Under the pieces are notes generated by a model. It had not been told where the DNA came from. It did not search any database and saw only the letters and a list, made by a program, of their open reading frames with translations. The translations under genes were made by a program, and so were the position numbers. From contig CAVTUQ010000009.1 of the NCBI GenBank assembly GCA_963737905.1, positions 215,738 to 279,737 on the forward strand: DNA of 64,000 bases, in the 5' to 3' direction. Shown here piece by piece: positions 22,111 through 61,140 of the stretch. How positions within the stretch are numbered: position 1 is the stretch's first letter; the number at the start of each line of letters is the position of its first letter. This stretch comes from an uncultured delta proteobacterium (lineage in GTDB: Bacteria > Desulfobacterota > Binatia > UBA9968).

Positions 22111-23391
22111 ATGCAATTAACACTCGCATATCATCCGGTCGGGGAAATTCTTTTTGGAACGCAGACGCGCCTTAACGGGACAACGCTGGTTGTCGATCCG
22201 GAGGAGCTGCGCCGAGTGGTCCTGGAAGACGAAGCTATCGAAAGCATGGAGTTCGAAATTGTCCGGCCCGGGGAAAGCTGCCGCGCCGGGCCGATCTTCG
22301 ACATTGTCCAACCACGAGCGAAGGAGCCTGGATCAAGTCCTGATTTCCCCGGCATTTTGGGACCGCCGATGCCTGCCGGCGTCGGGATCACGCATGTATT
22401 GGAGGGAGCCGCAGTTTCAGTTTTGGCGGAAAGATCGCCGGGAGAGTCGAGAAGCGTGACGGGCCGGGTGTTGGAGATGAGCGGAGTTGCTGCCGAAGCA
22501 ACGGTATACTCTTCGATGCAACATTTAGTGGTCATCCCGCACACGCGAGCCGGATTGCCGATTCACGCTATAGACAAGGCCTACCGCAAGGCGGGCCTGA
22601 AGGTTGCCGTTTACCTTAGCCGCGCCGCGCTGAATCATACTCCGGAATCTACACAGACCTTTGACCCGGTTGGTCCAGGGGAGGGAGGACGCGAGGGATT
22701 GCCACGGTTCGCTTACGTCGGCCAAATTTTTTCCCGCCAGCGGAAACCCGCCGTGGACGAGCCGATTCTCTACGGTGCCAACACAGAGGGGATGCTGCCG
22801 GTCGTACTCCATCCCGACGAATGGTTGGATGGAGCGATCGTGCCGTCGCTCCAGTCCTGGTTCGGCGGCACCGAGACCTATTTCTACCAGAATCACCCTG
22901 TGATCCTGGAGCTCTACCGGCGCCATCAGGCACGGGAGATCGATTTCGTCGGGACCATCGCCACGATTGCCGGGTCCGATAACTTCGACCGGGATCGCCA
23001 TTGCCGGGTGGCTGCAAATCTAGTGAAGTGGAACTTGAAGGCCGATGCTGTGGCGCTCACAAAATGGGGTGGTGGATTACCCCACGCCGACTTGGCGGAG
23101 ACCGCGCGACTGCTGGAAGGCATGGGTATACGTACCACCGTGATGGTTTCCGACATGTCCAAAGACCGCCGCGTAGAGTCGGCGCTCCTCTTCAATTTTC
23201 CGGAAGTGAACGCCATCGTCTACAATGGGGGTAACGGCACTCAGTGGGAGATACCCCGTGTGCAGCGAATTATCACCGCAACGCCGGAGCTGGCGGAGCT
23301 ACTGGGCGGACCGATGATGATCGGGGCTTGGAACGTCGTCGGCGTTACGAATCAGCAGGGCGCGTCGCGAATGCGAGCACTGGTTTATTAA
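22111..23391 (+). CDS. grdE: Glycine/sarcosine/betaine reductase component B proprotein-like (GrdE family)
   Basis: IVRPGES..DIVQPRAK, THVLEG, AGLKVAVYL, LHPDEWLDGAI, TYFYQNHPVILELYRRH; GAGGAG RBS; adjacent to grdB. Confidence 0.82.
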   Translation: MQLTLAYHPVGEILFGTQTRLNGTTLVVDPEELRRVVLEDEAIESMEFEIVRPGESCRAGPIFDIVQPRAKEPGSSPDFPGILGPPMPAGVGITHVLEGAAVSVLAERSPGESRSVTGRVLEMSGVAAEATVYSSMQHLVVIPHTRAGLPIHAIDKAYRKAGLKVAVYLSRAALNHTPESTQTFDPVGPGEGGREGLPRFAYVGQIFSRQRKPAVDEPILYGANTEGMLPVVLHPDEWLDGAIVPSLQSWFGGTETYFYQNHPVILELYRRHQAREIDFVGTIATIAGSDNFDRDRHCRVAANLVKWNLKADAVALTKWGGGLPHADLAETARLLEGMGIRTTVMVSDMSKDRRVESALLFNFPEVNAIVYNGGNGTQWEIPRVQRIITATPELAELLGGPMMIGAWNVVGVTNQQGASRMRALVY

Positions 23392-23440
23392 TGTATTCGG
23401 CACCAGGCAAAAGAAAAAGGGGAGACATCGAGGACAGAAC

Positions 23441-23503
23441 AACCGCAGAGAACGCAAAGGTCACAAAGTATAACGCTATGTGTTCTATGCGTTCTTTGCG
23501 GTT
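23441..23503. repeat. Inverted 9-nt-period repeat hairpin
   Basis: AACCGCAGAGAACGCAAAGGTCACAAAG against the reverse complement of the right arm, AACCGCAAAGAACGCATAGAACACATAG. Confidence 0.75.
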
Positions 23504-23538
23504 AAGTGTTTTTTCCTCTTATGGTGGAGGTTTCTGAA

Positions 23539-24819
23539 ATGCGAGTTGTACATTATCTGAATCAATTCTTCGGCGGTATCGGCGCGGAAGAGCAAGCGGG
23601 GATGGGCCTCGAAGCGCGCACCGGCGCAGTGGGCCCCGCCAAGCTCTTGGAGCAATTGTTGGGCGAAGGCGCTCAGGTCGTGATGACCCTCGTTTGCGGC
23701 GATAACTATGCCGTCGAACATGAGGAAGAGTTGGTTGCCTCCGTTCTGGAAAAGGTCCGCGGCGCAGGTGCGGATCTATTCGTCGCGGGACCGTGCTTCG
23801 AAGCGGGCCGCTATGGGATGGCGGCCGGCGCCCTCTGTGTTGCCGTCCAATCGCAGGTCGGTATTCCCGTCATCACCGGAATGAGCGAGGAAAACCCCGG
23901 CGTCGATCTGTATCGCGATGCACTTTATATTACCGACTCGGGCACCAACGCTGCCCGGATGCGCGACGTGTTACTTAAGATGGCAAAACTCGGGAGAAAG
24001 CTGGTTAACAAGAACGCCATCGGTTTACCTGCAGAGGAAGACTACCTGCGCCGCGGGCTATTGCGCGACCAGGTGGTCGACCAGACGGCGGCGAGGCGAC
24101 TCATCGACATGCTAGTGGCGAAAGTCAAAGGCGAGCCGTTCGAGTCAGAGATGTTGCCCACATCATTCGAGCCGGTGCCGATGCCCTCCGGCGTTAAAGA
24201 TCTTTCCAAAGCCAAGGTGATGCTCATCACGGACGGCGGGCTTGTTCCGAAAGGCAATCCGGACAAGATCCACGGAACTGCGGCGACGCGGTGGGGCGCC
24301 TATAGCATCGAAGGTCGTGACGTTCTCAGCGGCAAAGATTACGAGATCTCCCACGGTGGTTATGATGCGCGATTTGTCCAAGAAGATCCGGATCGTCTCG
24401 TACCCCTCGACGCGATGCGCGAGATGGAAAGGAGCGGCGTCATCGGCAAGCTCCACGACGAATTCATTTCGACTTCGGGCCGGGCGAACCCGCTTTCTAA
24501 CACGCGCCGTCTCGGCCGGGAGATGGCGGAAAAGGCAAAGCAGGAGGGGGTCGATGCCGTCATCCTCACCTCCACCTGAGGCACGAGCACTCGCAGCGGC
24601 GCTGCGATCACAACTGAGCTGGAAAAAGCCGGAATTCCGGTGGTGCAGATTACCTCCGCCATGTCGATTGCGAAGATGGTCGGATCCAACCGCGTCGTTC
24701 TAGGGCATGGCATCGTTCATGTCACCGGCGATGCCAAACTGGCGCCCGAAGAAGAAAAAGACTTGCGCCGCAAGCTCGTGCAAAAGGCGCTCAGCGCACT
24801 GCAATCGAGCGAGAAGTAG
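23539..24819 (+). CDS. grdB: Glycine/betaine/sarcosine reductase selenoprotein B family; Sec at UGA 24577-24579; 426 aa
   Basis: MRVVHYLNQFFGGIG, CGDNY, AGRYG, GGLVPKGNPD, VILTST-UGA-GTSTRSG. Homology continues in frame (ELEKAGIPVV..VGSNRVV..GI) to TAG at 24817. Confidence 0.93.
24591..24607 (+). promoter_or_regulatory. Bacterial SECIS-like hairpin
   Basis: TCGCAGC-GGC-GCTGCGA perfect 7-bp stem beginning after an 11-nt spacer 3' of the in-frame UGA. Confidence 0.75.
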
Positions 24820-31397: not shown

Positions 31398-31542
31398 AAA
31401 TCCGAAATCCGAATATCGAAATCCGAAACAAACCTAAAGACTTAAACCCCAATTACGAAATCCGAAACGGGCTGGTTTGGAACTTTCTAATTTTTTGATC
31501 ATTTGAAATTGTTTCGAATTTCGGATTTCGAGTTTTGAATTT
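31398..31542. repeat. Inverted AAATCCG heptamer arrays
   Basis: Left AAATCCG AAATCCG AATATCG AAATCCG AAACAA; right arm reverse complement AAATTCA AAACTCG AAATCCG AAATTCG AAACAA. Confidence 0.8.
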
Positions 31543-31611
31543 GTAATTTTTTATACTTGGCGCCCTTTGCGTCTTTGCGCGAGACACGCTTTCCCGTTTC
31601 TCTTTTTCATC

Positions 31612-42032: not shown

Positions 42033-43091
42033 ATGTCGGAGCAGGAACTTTTGCAGGCGCTGGAAGATAGACTCAGTCAACTCAGCGTCGAGGGACTCTG
42101 GTCCCAGGCATCCGAAGCGGACATGGCCACTTACAGCAAGGATCCCCACACGACGGTTCTGCCTCATGTGTGGAAATGGCAAGATCTGTACGATGCGATT
42201 CAGGCAGTGGGCAACATGCACGGTCTCGACGGCAAGGCGGAGAGGCGGGTGCTCCGGCTCATCAATCCGGCCTATCAGGGCAACAAAAACAGACGACAGC
42301 GCACCACAACCCACACCATGCTCATGACGATGCAGTTGCTGAAGCCCGGCGAGGTGGCCCAGGATCACCGGCACAACTTCGCGGCGTTTCGTTTCATCCT
42401 CAAGGGGAGCGGAGCCTACACCGTTGTCGAAGGAGAAAAAATTCCCATGGAGGAGGGGGACTTGATTCTTACTCCCTCTATGACGTGGCATGGGCACCGG
42501 AATGGCGGCGAACCGGTTATCTGGCTCGATGGGCTGGACAACCCTTTGCTGTTCTTGCTTCAGGTAATTACATGGGAAGCCTTTCCCGCCGGCCTGCAGC
42601 CGATCAAAAATGGCGCCGATTGTGTGGCGCCAAGAGTTGGGATGGCTCGACCGGTTTGGGACAAATCGTGGGACCGTCCGAGCTATAACTTGCATTACAA
42701 ATGGAAGGATACCTACGACACCCTGAAGCGTCTGAGCGATGGTCCCGGGAGTCCCTTCGATGGCGTAGCGTTGGAATATGTGAATCCGGCGGGCGGGCAT
42801 ACGATGCCCACGCTATCCTGCGGTATTCAAATGCTGAGGCAGGGCGAGACAACCCAAACCCACCGACATAATAGCAGTACCATCTACCATGCATTCAGGG
42901 GCAGCGGGACCACAGTGATCAATGGCGAAAAGTTTGACTGGGGGCAAGGAGATTGCTTTGTGGTGCCATTGTGGAGCTGGCACAGTCACCAAAATCGCTC
43001 GAAAGATGAAGAAGCAATTTTATTTTCCACAAGTGACATGCCCGTGATGGAAGCCTTGAAACTCTATCGTGAGGAACCGTATGGCGTATAG
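42033..43091 (+). CDS. Gentisate 1,2-dioxygenase-like bicupin
   Basis: AERRVLRLINP, HRHNFAAFRF, TWHGH, WLDGLD, YVNPAGG..MPT, HRHNSS. Stop codon lies inside the heptamer array. Confidence 0.88.
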   Translation: MSEQELLQALEDRLSQLSVEGLWSQASEADMATYSKDPHTTVLPHVWKWQDLYDAIQAVGNMHGLDGKAERRVLRLINPAYQGNKNRRQRTTTHTMLMTMQLLKPGEVAQDHRHNFAAFRFILKGSGAYTVVEGEKIPMEEGDLILTPSMTWHGHRNGGEPVIWLDGLDNPLLFLLQVITWEAFPAGLQPIKNGADCVAPRVGMARPVWDKSWDRPSYNLHYKWKDTYDTLKRLSDGPGSPFDGVALEYVNPAGGHTMPTLSCGIQMLRQGETTQTHRHNSSTIYHAFRGSGTTVINGEKFDWGQGDCFVVPLWSWHSHQNRSKDEEAILFSTSDMPVMEALKLYREEPYGV

Positions 43092-43135
43092 CCTATGGCA
43101 TATGGCTTATGGCCTATGGCTTATGGTCATCGGTC
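43080..43135 (+). repeat. TATGGCN heptamer tandem array (8 units)
   Basis: TATGGCG TATAGCC TATGGCA TATGGCT TATGGCC TATGGCT TATGGTC ATCGGTC. Confidence 0.9.
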
Positions 43136-43136
43136 A

Positions 43137-43490
43137 TTATCTCAAGGTCCGCTTGAATGCGTTGATTCTCTTGCTTAACGATTCACCATCTCTTTTCATT
43201 TCTTCCAAGTCGTGCTGAGAAACGTAAGATTGCCTTCGGGCAACAAAGAAACATGCGACAGTTTCACAGGTTGACCCTAGAGCCATATCTAGGAAGTGAC
43301 AAAAATCCTTCTTTGTTCCTCTTCCGGAACCCTCGGCAATATTCAGAACGATCGAGTTAGCAGCACGGCGTGCTTGCGATGTGAGATCGAAGCGTTCTTC
43401 CGACGGAAACTGCTTGACTGTTTCATGCACCCGAGCTGAAAAGTCGATCGCGGCGTGGAAGATTTCCAATCCTTCGAACCGAAAGGCCAT
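43137..43490 (-). CDS. Four helix bundle protein (23S rRNA IVP family)
   Basis: FRFEGLEIF..FPSEERFDLTSQARRAANSIVLNIAEGSGR..DFCHFLDMALGS..E; 117 aa. Confidence 0.92.
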   Translation of the reverse strand: MAFRFEGLEIFHAAIDFSARVHETVKQFPSEERFDLTSQARRAANSIVLNIAEGSGRGTKKDFCHFLDMALGSTCETVACFFVARRQSYVSQHDLEEMKRDGESLSKRINAFKRTLR

Positions 43491-43517
43491 GCTACTCTTT
43501 TTTGTCTGGCATTCCAC

Positions 43518-43548
43518 GCCATTTGCCATAAGCCATCGGCCATACGCC
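43518..43548 (-). repeat. Heptamer array inverted relative to 43080-43135
   Basis: GCCATTT GCCATAA GCCATCG GCCATAC GCC. Confidence 0.85.
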
Positions 43549-44706
43549 CTAGCTGAGTATGCGTGGCCCAAAGAGTTTTACGGCATTATCCCACAATATT
43601 TTACGCCGGGCCTCGTCTCCAATCGGTTGCGCATCGAATTCGGGTAGCGCTTTCGAGGGTTCTATGGCATCCGGATGCGGGTAATCGGTATTCCAGACAA
43701 TGTTCTCGCCTTGCAGGTAGTCGACCACATACTTGAGCGCCCGCTCATCGCTGTCACAGGCGATGATGCATTGACGCATGAAGTACTCGCTCGGGAGCAT
43801 CCGTAGCGCCTCTGATTTTCCCATGACGCTGTTGCGCCCGTGGGTGTGATCATCCATCCTGCCGAGCCAGAAGGGCAGCCAACCGGCATTGGACTCCAGA
43901 ATGCCGAGCCGCAGCTTCGGGAAGCGCTCCAGTATGCCGGTAAAGATGTAGTGGCCGAGAGTGGTCATGTTGTCGCAAGGGAAACCCAGGGCGTGGTCCA
44001 GCCCGCGCAACGCCAGCTGCATGTCTTCGCGCCTTTCGCCTTCGAGTTGCCTGAAGGGATGAAACCGGCGTTGACGATACTCTCCATGAGCGGAGATGGG
44101 AAAGTCCAGTTCGCAAGCCAAATTCCATAGCGCATCGTATTCCGGCTCGTGGAGCCACTTGCCCACCGGAAGAAAAGGGTTTCTGACCGACACGGCTCCC
44201 AGTTCCACCACGGCACGGCGAGCTTCCTTTACCATTTCCCCGACGTCCGACCCTGGTAAAACCGCGACAAACTTGAGACGCTTGGGGTCAAGGCTGCAAT
44301 AGTCATGGGCCCAGTTGTTATAGGCTCGGCACATCGCCGCCCCGAGACTAATGTCTTTGAGCGCGACGCGATAGGCGAAGTTGCCGTTGTTGCCGGTGGG
44401 CAACAACACCTGAATGTCCCAGCCGTAGCGATCCATATCTTTCAGGCGAATTTCCGACGACCACCATTGCCGATAGGCCTCGCCATATTTGCCTTCCATC
44501 ACCTTCCACGCGCTCTGTGGCGGGCGCGACTGGATTTCGCCCTTGGGAATAAACTTTCCGTCGGGCTCGTAGATCATAAAGACGCCATCCATGAAAGCGA
44601 CTTTCGGCACCTGATCCCTGTACTTCGGCTCCACGTATCTCTCCCAGAGATATTGGGGTTCATGCATATGGGCATCGGCGTCAATGACTTTGAATTGTTT
44701 CCACAT
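43549..44706 (-). CDS. Amidohydrolase_2 family protein
   Basis: IDADAHMHEP, CRAYNNW, NTDYPHPD, ILWDNAVKLF. Confidence 0.9.
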   Translation of the reverse strand: MWKQFKVIDADAHMHEPQYLWERYVEPKYRDQVPKVAFMDGVFMIYEPDGKFIPKGEIQSRPPQSAWKVMEGKYGEAYRQWWSSEIRLKDMDRYGWDIQVLLPTGNNGNFAYRVALKDISLGAAMCRAYNNWAHDYCSLDPKRLKFVAVLPGSDVGEMVKEARRAVVELGAVSVRNPFLPVGKWLHEPEYDALWNLACELDFPISAHGEYRQRRFHPFRQLEGERREDMQLALRGLDHALGFPCDNMTTLGHYIFTGILERFPKLRLGILESNAGWLPFWLGRMDDHTHGRNSVMGKSEALRMLPSEYFMRQCIIACDSDERALKYVVDYLQGENIVWNTDYPHPDAIEPSKALPEFDAQPIGDEARRKILWDNAVKLFGPRILS

Positions 44707-44773
44707 AGGTTGGGCTCCCTCGCGGCCAAGTATGAATCGACGCTATTCGATCTAAGCCGATAGTCCTCGCAGT

Positions 44774-44906
44774 TGGCTTATGGCATATGGCTTATAGCGT
44801 ATGGTTCGTATGTTCCAACTATATGCCATAAGCTATCAGCCATATCTACTTCTATTTATCCGGCATCCCACGCCATAGGCCATTTGCTATATGCTATAAG
44901 CCATAG
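44774..44906. repeat. Gene-less heptamer inverted-array element
   Basis: (TATGGCN)n, spacer, (GCCATAN)n, leader-like segment, then five more GCYATNN units; 66/71 identical to 61025-61095. Confidence 0.88.
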
Positions 44907-44910
44907 GTTG

Positions 44911-45642
44911 TTAGTCGACTGCCACCAGGTTGCCATCTCGATGCTCCACCGTCTTGCCGGTGAGCTCCATACCGGCTTGCGCCGCCAGCACAAAACCATT
45001 GCCCAAGCACTCGGGGCCGGGTAGCCGCTTTCGCGCTTCTTCCGGTGCATCCTCCGTGGCAATGGCCTGCTGCGGGCTAAAGGCGACGACGCAGATGTTC
45101 CACTCGCGTTCCTCTTCGGCAACGAAGCGGGTGAAAGTTCGGATCGCGTCTTTACTGACGACGTAGGCGGCAGCGCCGTGGTTCTCGGCCCGGCCGCCGC
45201 CCCAGAGGTTTACAATGTTACCGGCGCGACGCGTCTCCATGAACGGAACGACATATTTCGTGCATAGGAAAGTTCCGCCGAGATTGGTTTGAATGACGCT
45301 GTCCCAGAAATCTTTGCTCATGAAGCGGACGCGCGGCCAACGGGGGATACCCCAGTTGAAGTGGGGCACGATACCAGCGTCGTTGACCAGCACGTCGATT
45401 TGACCGAAGCGATCGACGACCTGGTGAACCATGCGGCGGACCTCGTCCTCGTGGCGTACGTCCGCGGGCAGAGCCAACGCCTCGAATTTGAGATCCCGCA
45501 GTTCGCCTAGAGTCTTGTGCAATCTTTCGACGTCTACGTCGACGATGATGACGGTGCCGCCGGCTTGAGCGATAGTGTGTGCAGCGTAACGACCAATTCC
45601 CTTCGCTCCGCCCGTGACGATAACGATTTTTTCCTGTAACAT
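44911..45642 (-). CDS. Short-chain dehydrogenase/reductase
   Basis: VTGGAKGIG, DVLVNDAG, YVVSK. Confidence 0.9.
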   Translation of the reverse strand: MLQEKIVIVTGGAKGIGRYAAHTIAQAGGTVIIVDVDVERLHKTLGELRDLKFEALALPADVRHEDEVRRMVHQVVDRFGQIDVLVNDAGIVPHFNWGIPRWPRVRFMSKDFWDSVIQTNLGGTFLCTKYVVPFMETRRAGNIVNLWGGGRAENHGAAAYVVSKDAIRTFTRFVAEEEREWNICVVAFSPQQAIATEDAPEEARKRLPGPECLGNGFVLAAQAGMELTGKTVEHRDGNLVAVD

Positions 45643-46007: not shown

Positions 46008-46128
46008 AACTTTCTCCTTTGTGATGGGGCACTCCGCCCGTCCATTCCGCTGCCGAGCATGACACAGCAGAGTGTAGGCTTCAACTACAGATTGCCCTGT
46101 GACTTCAGGTTATGATAGGAGAGGCGTC

Positions 46129-47113
46129 ATGAAAAAAATGATTTATTTGATAGCTGTGTTGTTTGTCGTCGCGTCCGCGCGTGCGGCCCGCTGCCAGGAC
46201 AAAATTCGTGTTGGCCAAGGCTCCGTCAGTCTACAATCCGGCCTCATGTATATCGGCAAAGACCGCGGGCTATTCGCGAAGTACGGCCTCACTACCGAGG
46301 TCATTTACATTCCAGGCGGCTCGACCAACGTACAGGTTCTCGTTTCGGGAAATCTCGATCTGTCGCAGCTAAGTGGGGCGCCCGGCGTCGCTGCCAATCT
46401 TGAGGGGGCGGATCTGATCTACTTCGTCGGCCTGCTCGACAAATTGAACTATCAACTCATAACGCGGCCTGAGATCAAAGGCATTGAACAACTCAAGGGC
46501 AAAAAATTTGGCGTCAGCCGGTTCGGTTCTTCTGCGGACTTTGGCATGCGCGCCATGCTCAAGCGGGCCGGTGTCGATCCGGTGAAGGAGGCGACGATAT
46601 TGCAAATCGGCGACGAGCCGGCGCGCATCGCGGCGATCAAGTCCGGCAATATCGACGGCACAGTCGCCAATGCTCCCTTCGGCACCGAGGCGGAAAGGCT
46701 GAAGCTCAATGTCATTGCCGACTCTGTGAAAATGGATATTCCATTTTTCAATACCGGATTACTCGGCAGCAAAAAATATTTGGAGAAACAGGACGTCAAA
46801 GTCATGAATTTTCTTGCGCGCCTATCTTGAAGCGATCAAGGTGCTCAAGACCGAACGCGAATATTCGATTAAAACCCTTGCGCAGTTCACACGCGTGCAG
46901 AATCTAAAAGCGGTCCAAGAGGGCTACGATTACTTCGTCAACCAACTCCCGTCGGTTCCCTATCCTTCCGTAGAAGCGATGCAGGCGGTGGTCGCGCAGA
47001 TCGCCGAAACGAATCCCAAAGCTAGGAACGTCGATGCCAAGAATTATGTGAGCGACCGTTATCTCAAACGGCTGGAAGAGGAAGGATTCGTCAGAAAGAT
47101 TTGGGGAAAGTGA
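46129..47113 (+). CDS. ABC substrate-binding protein, NMT1-like (one apparent extra base near 46813)
   Basis: GLFAKYGL, LKGKKFGVSRFGS; second frame ends YLKRLEEEGFVRKIW. Confidence 0.85.
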
Positions 47114-55249: not shown

Positions 55250-57698
55250 ATGAATGCAAAAATTGCACGATTGGACTCCCGACGAGATACCGAGGCGATC
55301 GAATGGGCAGATGAATTACGCGAAACCGAGGCTTGGTTTCAAAACCCGCGATTCCAGGAAATCACGCGTCTTCATACGCCTTTCGAAGTCGTCGCGTTGC
55401 GTGGGAACACCCGCGAAGATCACACAGTGGCCCGGCAGTCGGCTGTGAAGATGTATGACTATCTGCAGCGATTATTTCGAGAAGGCCTGCAAGAAATCAC
55501 CTACGGTCCTTTCTCGCCCACCGGGGCAGTGCGAGCCGTCATGGAAGGAATCAAGGTTCTCTATTTGGGAGGATGGAGCACTTCCGCGCGGGGCTCCGAT
55601 TCGGAGGACCCGGGTGCCGATTTGGCGAATTACGCTTTGGATCGGGTCCCCAAAGAAGGGGGCTCTTGGGTGCGTGCCTTGCTGCATCAGGATGAAGTGC
55701 AAAGATCCAACCGCATGAGAATGACCTCGGTGCAACGAAAAAAGACTGCCGCGATTGAATTCAGCCCACCGATGATCATTCCCGACGGGGACACGGGGCA
55801 TGGTGGGGAACATCACATTCGCAACCTGGTCAAAAAGTTTGTGGAGAACAAAATAGGCGCGATTCATATCGAGGACCAACGGGGGGGTTGTAAGGTCTGC
55901 GGTCACCAGGGACAAAAGGTTCTGGTCTCTACGGCGGAAATGATTTCCAGGCTCAATACGGCGAGGCTACAGTTCGATATCATGGGATCTGCCCGGCGTG
56001 ATCGTTGCCCGCACCGACTCCAACGACGCCACGGCGATCGATAGTGTGGAAGACGAGCGGGACCACCCGTTTATTTACGGGGCGACCAATCGGCGCATCG
56101 TCCCCTTTAAAAACGTCAGCCTGGCCGTGATCAAAACGTTTTACGAACACGGCATCAAGGAAATTAATGGACATCTGCTTCACAGAATTTCAGATAAAGC
56201 CTATCGAGAAGCGGAACAGTGGCTCAAGGAAGAGCGCCTTACAGCTCGAATTAATGACGCGCTCGACCGAATCAATAAAGAAACCGAATCCTTAAAAAAG
56301 CTGCGGCAGCAAGCGCGACGCCAAAAAAGGGGACAGAGGGACATTCGTGAGCAGCTGGCGGCCCTCGAAGTGATGGTGAAAAAGGTTACCGAGGAAATCG
56401 TGGATCACGTTCTGGCCGACATCCGGGAAGCATGGGCTCAAAAGGCGGGTCTAAAGACTTATGCTGAAGCGGTTGCGCAAGCGATGCAAGCGAAAGCGCC
56501 CGGCAAAGCGAGCGTCGAACGGTGGAAAAAATTTGCCGACTCGGTCTCCCACGAGGAAGCGCGTGAGCGTGCCGAGTCCATGGGGATCGACGTCTTCTGG
56601 AATTGGGACCTGCCGAGAACGCCGGAGGGTTTTTACGAGGTTACGGGCGGGCGCGATATGGCGACGGCAAGGGGCTTGGCGATGGCGCCGTTCGCCGATT
56701 TGGTCTGGCGAGAAACAGCCCAGCCCGACTTGGAAGACGATAAGGCGTGGGCGGACGCGATCCATGCCACTTTCCCAAAAAAGATGTTGGCTTATAACCT
56801 GTCGCCTTCTTGGAATTGGGATGCTTGGGGCTTTACGGATGACCAGCTGCGGAGCTTTGCCAGCGAATTGGGCAAGATGGGTTATGTCTATAACTTCATT
56901 ACTTACGCCGGTCATCAAACCGAAGCGCTTATGAACGGGCGCTTGGCGCGGGCGCTCAGAGAAGAGGGTGTGCTTGGCTTTGTCAGATTGATTCAACGTT
57001 CTTTGCGGCTTGCCAACGACCCCGCGCAGTATCCCCAGTCGTTTGTGGGTGGGGCGTGGGCCGATCGTTTTCGCCGGGCAGCCCGTGGAGCGTCGCTTAC
57101 CACATCGTCCATGGGTGGAAAGTCCACGGAAATGCAACATCGTAAGGCCGTCGAAGTGCCTACCAGCGTGCTCGAAAGATGGTTGCGCATATGGACGCAG
57201 TATTGGAGCGAGCAAGGTCTATTGGACAAAGGGGAGCTGAGCGTCGAGCTTAAAGAGTTATGGGCCGGATCCGAGCAAATGATGCTCAATGTTTTCGACG
57301 AAGCCCACGACAAGATCGCGGAGATTACGTTCCGGGTCGATAAGGACCGCGCCGGGCGAAAATATCTCGCCGTTAAAGACCAGAATACGGTTAAAAAGTA
57401 TCGCTCCCGGCGTCTGATGACGCTGATGCATTTTTTCCTGCTTCACCGCTACAAGATTGATCTTGTCTACTATGTGGCTCCGACACATGACAACCGCATG
57501 TCGGTTCAGCGCATGATTTACAATGGGATTTTCAGGCAGGCCCGAACAGACGATCCGAACATTATTGCTATCGAAGTCGACACGGCACGCGCCCAGAGAA
57601 TTTTCGCCAACGACGAGTCGATCAAACGGTTTGTTGCCAGGCAGCCGACGGGTGCAGGCCGCAGTGCCAGTGCTTCTGTGCGCGCGGCAGCAGGATAG
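55250..57698 (+). CDS. aceA: Isocitrate lyase, long ICL2-like form (one apparent extra base near 55988)
   Basis: YLGGW, DPGADLANY, DGDTGHGG, HIEDQ..KVCGH..KVLV, VARTD, MLAYNLSPSWNW, plus an extra C-terminal domain. Confidence 0.92.
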
Positions 57699-60968: not shown

Positions 60969-61140
60969 CGGGCTGTTGAAAAAAGCCCATCCGCTTCGTT
61001 GCGCTCGATCTCCGCACTCCCGTGGGCTTATGGCGTATGGCTTATAGCGTAGGGTTCGGAAGTTCCAACTATATGCGATAAGCTATCAGCCATATGCTGA
61101 AATCCGCGCGCCTTGCACCTGGACTTTTTTGACCAGTCCG
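60969..61140. mobile_element. MITE-like element with imperfect terminal inverted repeats, carrying a nested heptamer hairpin
   Basis: Left CGGGCTGTTGAAAAAAGCCC against right reverse complement CGGACTGGTCAAAAAAGTCC (16/20). Confidence 0.6.
61025..61095. repeat. 71-bp heptamer hairpin, copy of 44775-44845
   Basis: 66/71 ungapped identity by eye. Confidence 0.9.

Follow-up and report, generated by a model that had tools for sequence, protein, structure and literature searches.

PF05635 is a large protein family with solved structures and no function. The helix-45 IVS of Coxiella burnetii 23S rRNA has terminal inverted repeats and an S23p ORF and is excised by RNase III; tandem GACAGAT heptamers, variable in number, stand before its start codon (PMC4990558). 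The family has been connected to Avd (PMC10053308), all five protomers of which bind a stem-loop via flipped-out bases, using equivalent crevices (10.1101/2023.10.23.563531). Heptamer arrays are also on record in intergenic DNA. Xcc has 186 GGGAATC arrays of about four units each, 70 cases being in convergent pairs (PMC4692102). One four-unit GGGAATC array overlaps the start of XCC0516; it is listed without comment (supplement 2, row 15), and the name XCC0516 has 0 hits in the main text (PMC4692102). Beggiatoaceae carry TAACTGA heptamer arrays, for which the accessible part of PMC4679880 gives no mechanism.

Why heptamers are over-represented between bacterial genes and how rRNA IVSs move are old questions, and the cassette described here ties both to PF05635. 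It lies in a 64,000-nucleotide stretch of DNA (the window) from an uncultured delta proteobacterium, whose genome we call G000; other G numbers denote relatives.

Results

The cassette at the cupin/amidohydrolase junction

An earlier note, written from the letters of the window, had described a four-helix-bundle gene packaged between inverted heptamer arrays. The observation is real, and we confirm it with the following features.

42033..43091, plus strand: host gene outside the cassette, cupin, gentisate/aminosalicylate dioxygenase-like, below the equivalog cut-offs
43080..43135, no strand: left arm (3' relative to the gene), six strict NNATRGC units and two degenerate ones
43137..43490, minus strand: intact four-helix-bundle gene, 117 aa, PF05635/TIGR02436 (from HMM, model and dN/dS)
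43491..43517, minus strand: short purine-rich leader, which turns over together with the gene
43518..43548, no strand: right arm (5' relative to the gene), four full inverted units and a partial
43549..44706, minus strand: host gene outside the cassette, amidohydrolase_2

The ORF runs from the ATG at 43490 to the TAA at 43137 and, as supposed, encodes a four-helix-bundle protein that passes the cut-offs of both families. Its ribosome-binding site, in the leader, is weaker than those of the relatives. The left array had been counted as eight units. Six are strict ATRGC units at 7-nt spacing and a seventh is a near-match, while the eighth is very degenerate, so the count was generous; TRF reports 43080-43126 with period 7 and 6.7 copies. 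On the right, the four full GCCAT units and a partial agree with the four to five proposed. The claim that the cassette fills the gap between two convergent genes is also borne out: the cupin stop falls within the left array, and the right array ends at the amidohydrolase stop, one base further on. The left arm replaces the last four codons of the G000 cupin gene, which ends in EEPYGV vs EEPGEGA or EEAGEGG in relatives.

One detail of the note did not hold. The start of the gene (ATG GCC) had been read as a match to the heptamer core, but it is 32 nt from the last unit and out of register, which rules it out as a member of the array. The resemblance is probably coincidence: Met-Ala is a common protein start, and the G119 copy begins with ATG ACT.

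The arms were thought able to pair into a long stem, and the cassette is indeed predicted to fold with its arms paired on both strands (z -4.1 and -4.7). Terminal inverted repeats thus enclose an S23p-type ORF in a predicted stem-loop, an arrangement shared with ORF-bearing IVSs. No transposase, integrase or RT family was found among 54 of the 60 window ORFs plus an SDR gene, in line with the note's reading that the window has no transposase or RT.

Elsewhere in the window, 22111-24576 holds genes for component B of glycine/sarcosine/betaine reductase (PF09338, PF07355); the GRDB ORF runs to the last model position (347 of 347), after which a selenocysteine codon may follow. An NMT1-type binding-protein gene (46099-47110) and an isocitrate lyase gene (55250-57695) each look split into two overlapping ORFs, probably by frameshifts or assembly errors.

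The encoded protein

The 117-aa protein matches TIGR02436 with E 3.5e-30 (104.4 bits vs a cut-off of 24) and PF05635 with E 4.3e-31 (107.7 bits vs 33.8), and it keeps the family-invariant residues Q39, S46, N50, E53, G54, S73 and E76. A model built from an alignment of 67 sequences (pLDDT 97) superposes on the pentameric Xcc0516 of Xanthomonas (2GSC) with a TM-score of 0.94, and 2RLD also matches. Against Avd the TM-score is 0.77 at 6-9% identity, so that the fold common to the family and Avd, which the note had stated, is recovered from the model. Among intact copies dN/dS is 0.06-0.11, and 0.07-0.11 when G000 is compared with the four others; a value of about 0.1 implies that the protein matters for the persistence of the element. 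Five of the nine subfamily copies are intact; the other four have truncations or frameshifts.

The cassette is lost and flipped at one site

Between the cupin and amidohydrolase genes the cassette is reversed in G000, G014, G076 and G004 (a remnant) and forward in G001, G074 and G023 (a remnant). Alignment with relatives had been proposed as a search for empty sites, and these exist: among 30 cupin loci fetched, five held the cassette or a piece of it, and six, in syntenic genomes, kept the amidohydrolase gene downstream of the cupin gene with the cassette missing. A tree of the flanking cupin supports the sister pairs G000+G001 (98/98) and G074+G076 (100/99), each discordant in orientation; a minimum of two events, either flips or separate arrivals, is needed to account for this. 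In G074 and G076 gene and leader are turned around between unusual unit variants that keep to their own side of the site, and this puts the breakpoints in the arms. A cassette at a convergent junction lies downstream of a transcribed gene whichever way it points, so both orientations would survive.

Both orientations are found across species at this one site, and the window ORFs scanned include no site-specific recombinase. Four public runs, kept as contigs only and broken at the arms, contain no strand-switch or inversion joint. A contig from an RNA library spans 43269-43491; a contig alone cannot show transcription. By eye there is no target-site duplication, in a comparison made without a same-species empty allele, with ragged arm ends and with the spacer replaced.

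Inverted repeats can recombine to invert what lies between them without a dedicated protein. It is conceivable, if rather improbable, that the gene is a passive passenger: heptamers would arise by slippage in terminator-like stems, RecA or template switching would flip what lies between them, the gene would spread by ordinary homologous recombination, and the protein would have nothing to do with the repeats. The flips can be accommodated in this way, as can an exchange tract that may extend into the flank (see below).

Other loci and exchange between genera

A copy 85% identical in protein sequence lies at an unrelated junction in G004, and the other 29 of 30 loci examined have no cassette there (3 of these 29 lack the far anchor). 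An operon of G119 provides a third locus, with an 80% identical copy (L028 / L114:4800-5470) between two co-directional efflux genes, which we take to be cusB/cusA-like. Here a whole hairpin stands on each side of the gene as a direct repeat, a hairpin-gene-hairpin form also found in G000 at C28:165905 and 173136. The convergent junction G000:C9:116988-117120 and its orthologs (L115-L144), upstream of a presumably pal-like gene, hold a repeat that differs between nearly all species: 7-mer or 9-mer hairpins, REP-like or MITE-like sequence, the cassette (G004) or a spacer of 70-90 nt.

Between genera, the gene differs at 0.20-0.39 of fourfold sites vs about 0.5-0.67 for its flanks. For G076-G001 the counts are 9/45 in the gene vs 172/269 in the flanks (p 5e-8) and for G000-G076 15/46 vs 168/272 (p 3e-4); the genome pairs are mutually dependent, and slow change at the gene's silent sites is an alternative reading, though G074-G076 (below) shows the contrary pattern. 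The contrast is not significant for G000-G014 (p 0.09) and G000-G001 (p 1). That the silent sites of the gene are younger than those of the flanks indicates that the gene has been exchanged, faster than its site. The pair G074-G076 goes in the opposite direction (9/43 vs 38/328, p 0.09; overall identity 85% vs 92-95%), and its divergence climbs already within the last 50 codons of the flank, which is what ordinary homologous recombination would give. The cassette has been gained, lost, flipped and exchanged.

A search of a viral collection with a single protein returned one locus (L176:2995-3351), a cassette with GAAGTGA-type arms that lies antisense in a phage tail region, adjoined by a tape-measure-like gene and with another hairpin nearby. 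One viral locus is too little to support phage as a vehicle.

Gene-less hairpins and arrays

A genome scan for arrays, as suggested in the note, gave 385 period-7 arrays in G000 vs 9 and 12 in two codon shuffles. Multi-copy inverted doublets of the gene's own repeat are among them, as in a REPIN. The window itself holds three further features of this type.

44770..44846, no strand: gene-less hairpin of the NNATRGC unit in cassette polarity (fold z -4.5), 1.2 kb from the cassette
44872..44907, no strand: extra unpaired 3'-type array, missing at that site in G001 of the same genus
60971..61139, no strand: MITE-like element, its central loop replaced by an NNATRGC hairpin (61024-61096)

The hairpin at 44770-44846 resembles 43 places in the genome. 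Gene-less doublets share the polarity of the cassette by 32:1 for the NNATRGC unit and by 35:2 and 30:6 for two other units. An exception is a TTTCGRA-type array pair about 85 nt apart (31398-31554), whose polarity is the reverse of that seen in gene-enclosing TTTCGRA arms; G078 has a similar element at another junction. Hairpins are rare at divergent junctions (3/77 where 19.5% would be expected, p 7e-5; crude ORF map).

Of 31 right-end matches to the MITE-like family in G000, 23 keep the native loop, six (and one partial) have an ATRGC hairpin in its place and one has a GAGGAT-type hairpin. IVSs likewise replace stem loops in rRNA helices. MITE motifs lie near 12 of 32 gene-less hairpins, so that part of the spread of hairpins is hitch-hiking.

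Within the order, 30 of 123 genomes show a four-unit ATRGC pattern: all eight with the cognate gene or a remnant (in two possibly only at the cassette) and 22 of the 115 without. In genus g16, three of 31 genomes (G074, G076 and G078) have arrays, on several contigs, and two of these three are the sole g16 genomes to carry the gene. The cognate gene was not found in ten array-bearing genomes searched further (incomplete assemblies), and their other PF05635 loci (28, of which 22 were readable) gave 0 cases of ATRGC arms. Arrays can thus outlast or lack the gene, and both this persistence and the hitch-hiking in MITEs would be expected if the gene were a bystander of its repeats.

Inverted arms around PF05635 genes in general

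All 11 PF05635 genes of G000 have inverted arms by eye, in eight unit families; a strict finder reports arms on both sides for six and on one side for three, and none for two 8-9 nt cases. That a single genome holds eight of them for 11 genes shows that the unit is not set by the host. The note had asked for the flanks of homologs to be examined for 7-nt periodicity. In the best 80 of 508 homolog loci (two of the 80 being duplicate Binatia copies), period-7 arrays flank the gene on both sides in 49 and are inverted in 37, 13 of which score as direct too. Displaced controls (n=297) gave four with arrays on both sides and two inverted ones; periodic inverted arms are thus a property of the homologs also (37/80 vs 2/297). 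A looser count, of matched arms with a period of 6-10 and without a shuffle control, found them at 169 of 199 usable loci (204 examined, 110 further Binatia loci added); the period was 7 in 108, 9 in 31, 8 in 20, 6 in eight and 10 in two.

Arrays and gene form one unit, as the note had inferred: syntenic relatives are empty, the cassette stands at three unrelated loci, and arrays are strongly enriched beside PF05635 genes. Three results had been named beforehand as refuting this, namely array-free copies at the locus, a lack of empty sites and a lack of enrichment, and none of them was obtained.

Unit and period follow the protein clade across phyla, and each protein clade is paired with its own repeat unit. 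Unit similarity of at least 0.6 is seen for 2% of pairs below 40% protein identity, 51% of pairs at 50-60% and 28 of 28 pairs above 80%. Co-inheritance of a physically linked gene and its arms would by itself produce such co-variation on the tree. Every unit has some fixed positions; positions 3-4 vary. A gene merely carried along between slippage-born heptamers would leave unexplained why PF05635 in particular is enclosed, across many phyla, why invariant unit positions stand beside variable spacers, and why the period follows the protein clade and hairpins have one polarity.

PF05635 genes were found in 83 of 89 genomes of the window's family, up to 18 in each; family f3, represented by 28 genomes of one genus, lacks both PF05635 genes and ATRGC arrays.

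The cassette directly follows stop codons, a position in which the transcript of the neighbouring gene would run through it. Both neighbours could be called for 69 distant cassettes (crude ORF calls), and 57 of these are co-directional with both. Among the 78 of 149 neighbour genes that were scanned, 67 have a family, mostly housekeeping; examples are rpsC-rplP, ftsA-ftsZ, ATP synthase, guaB-guaA and sugar pathways. Transposases, integrases and RTs are absent from these 78.

Such positions would suit a host regulatory module, in which the pentamer binds the repeat in mRNA, the arms autoregulate the gene, the hairpins after stop codons form a regulon (termination, stability, RNase III processing) and movement is a side effect. 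TRAP is an analogy for a pentamer that binds repeats in mRNA. The purifying selection on the gene, the avoidance of divergent junctions and the co-directional cassettes all fit, and the Xanthomonas arrays are near stop codons and transcribed (PMC4692102). We nevertheless consider regulation unlikely. The neighbours have no common function, one junction carries a different hairpin family in nearly every species, four of nine subfamily copies are truncated or frameshifted, and the sense strand has no G-U bias (see below); the study of the Xanthomonas arrays, too, detected no role in regulation (PMC4692102).

Search for a mobiliser or a recognition code

A REPIN-RAYT system has an HUH/Y1 transposase flanked by the repeat; the gene enclosed here is PF05635. 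G000 has five matches to PF01797 (Y1 transposase), none with heptamer arms by eye, and no PF13366 gene (genome 87% complete). Nor was the adjacent RT of a diversity-generating retroelement, with its template and variable repeats, found among the window ORFs scanned or the 78 neighbours. The one RT of G000, which we take to be group II intron-like, is on another contig with no arrays near.

A residue-to-base code linking protein and repeat was sought. Mutual information across 46 protein clusters singled out residue 112 vs unit position 2 (z 4.3), L going with T and otherwise F/M/Y. The code was rejected: L goes with C and A units in the 8-mer clade and with C (or G, by register) in a clade of 12 members, and with only three independent pairs (p 0.5-1) it failed out of sample. 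Likewise, G-U variants between the arms do not favour the sense strand (cassette counts of 55 vs 57 and 34 vs 40).

These data bear on an RNA route, in which RNase III would excise the stem-loop, the pentamer would recruit an RT in trans, and the cDNA would be inserted or would convert a resident hairpin. The Avd fold and the role of Avd as an RT partner speak for it, as do the Coxiella IVS, which carries heptamers and is excised by RNase III (PMC4990558), the bias toward transcribed positions and the presence of one RT in the genome. With no RT beside any cassette scanned, the sole RT of the genome lacking nearby arrays and the arm variants free of strand bias, we regard this route as improbable. 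The failure of the residue code and the lack of a strand bias toward RNA pairing favour a DNA-level route.

Discussion

The reading we prefer, at roughly even odds (about 0.5), is a selfish gene-in-hairpin cassette, IVS-like and outside rRNA, whose pentamer recognizes its own repeat while host recombination does the chemistry. By analogy with its structural relatives, the protein would assemble into an Avd-like pentamer and, as such, bind one unit after another along its own imperfect hairpin. The recognized unit would be the invariant ATRGC with a free 2-nt spacer, in DNA that is single-stranded or extruded. Binding may then promote or protect transfer of the cassette, with host recombination or template switching supplying the chemistry. 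The incoming cassette, in either orientation, would take the place of intergenic spacer DNA, of the loop of a hairpin or of a same-unit hairpin already resident there; inversions would come from arm-to-arm recombination, and slippage would alter arm length.

More tentatively, PF05635 proteins may be the specificity factors of widespread enzyme-less mobile elements, with clade-specific 6-9 nt repeats and recruited host enzymes. If true, this would explain the movement of rRNA IVSs, most intergenic heptamer arrays and the role of Avd's ancestors. The cassette predicts a specific ligand for each protein clade. The locus adds direct comparative evidence that, at one site, a cassette flips and passes between genera, and it shows that arms can rewrite the ends of host genes.

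Comparison with known systems

The note had called the system undescribed. In the openly accessible literature searched, no description was found of PF05635 genes within inverted short-unit arrays outside rRNA, and to that extent the claim stands; the heptamers of the Coxiella 23S rRNA IVS are already published, which makes the cassette a variant of a known element and not wholly undescribed.

Like the 23S rRNA IVSs of Coxiella and Leptospira, the cassette has a PF05635-type ORF in the loop of a terminal-inverted-repeat stem, and those IVSs too are sporadic and horizontally moved (PMC4990558). Unlike them, it lies between protein genes (42900-45000 has no Rfam match), occurs in both orientations and at many loci, has gene-less derivatives and carries a gene under purifying selection. 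With REPIN-RAYT it shares a gene of low copy number that is coupled to a repeat of its own, inverted doublets that form hairpins and spread intergenically and, in G000, several gene-repeat pairs per genome (PMC3337134). It differs in encoding a 117-aa helical bundle instead of an HUH tyrosine transposase, in having tandem 6-9 nt arms and not REP palindromes, and in that the gene itself is exchanged between genera. Avd (4DWL, 8UB7 series) resembles the cassette protein in its four-helix-bundle fold and pentameric relatives and is a precedent for the reading of a stem-loop by five equivalent sites (10.1101/2023.10.23.563531), whereas the cassette has no adjoining RT, template/variable repeat pair or target gene. 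The Xanthomonas and Beggiatoaceae arrays, like the arms, are intergenic and near stop codons; the accessible parts of PMC4692102 and PMC4679880 propose G-quadruplex or translational roles and do not tie the arrays to a PF05635 gene. XCC0516, overlapped by one such array, is the gene of the solved pentamer 2GSC, and the accessible part of PMC4692102 lists no partner arm for that array. Set among these systems, the cassette is a real, widespread variant of the ORF-bearing IVS with REPIN-like gene-less derivatives, apparently undescribed as such.
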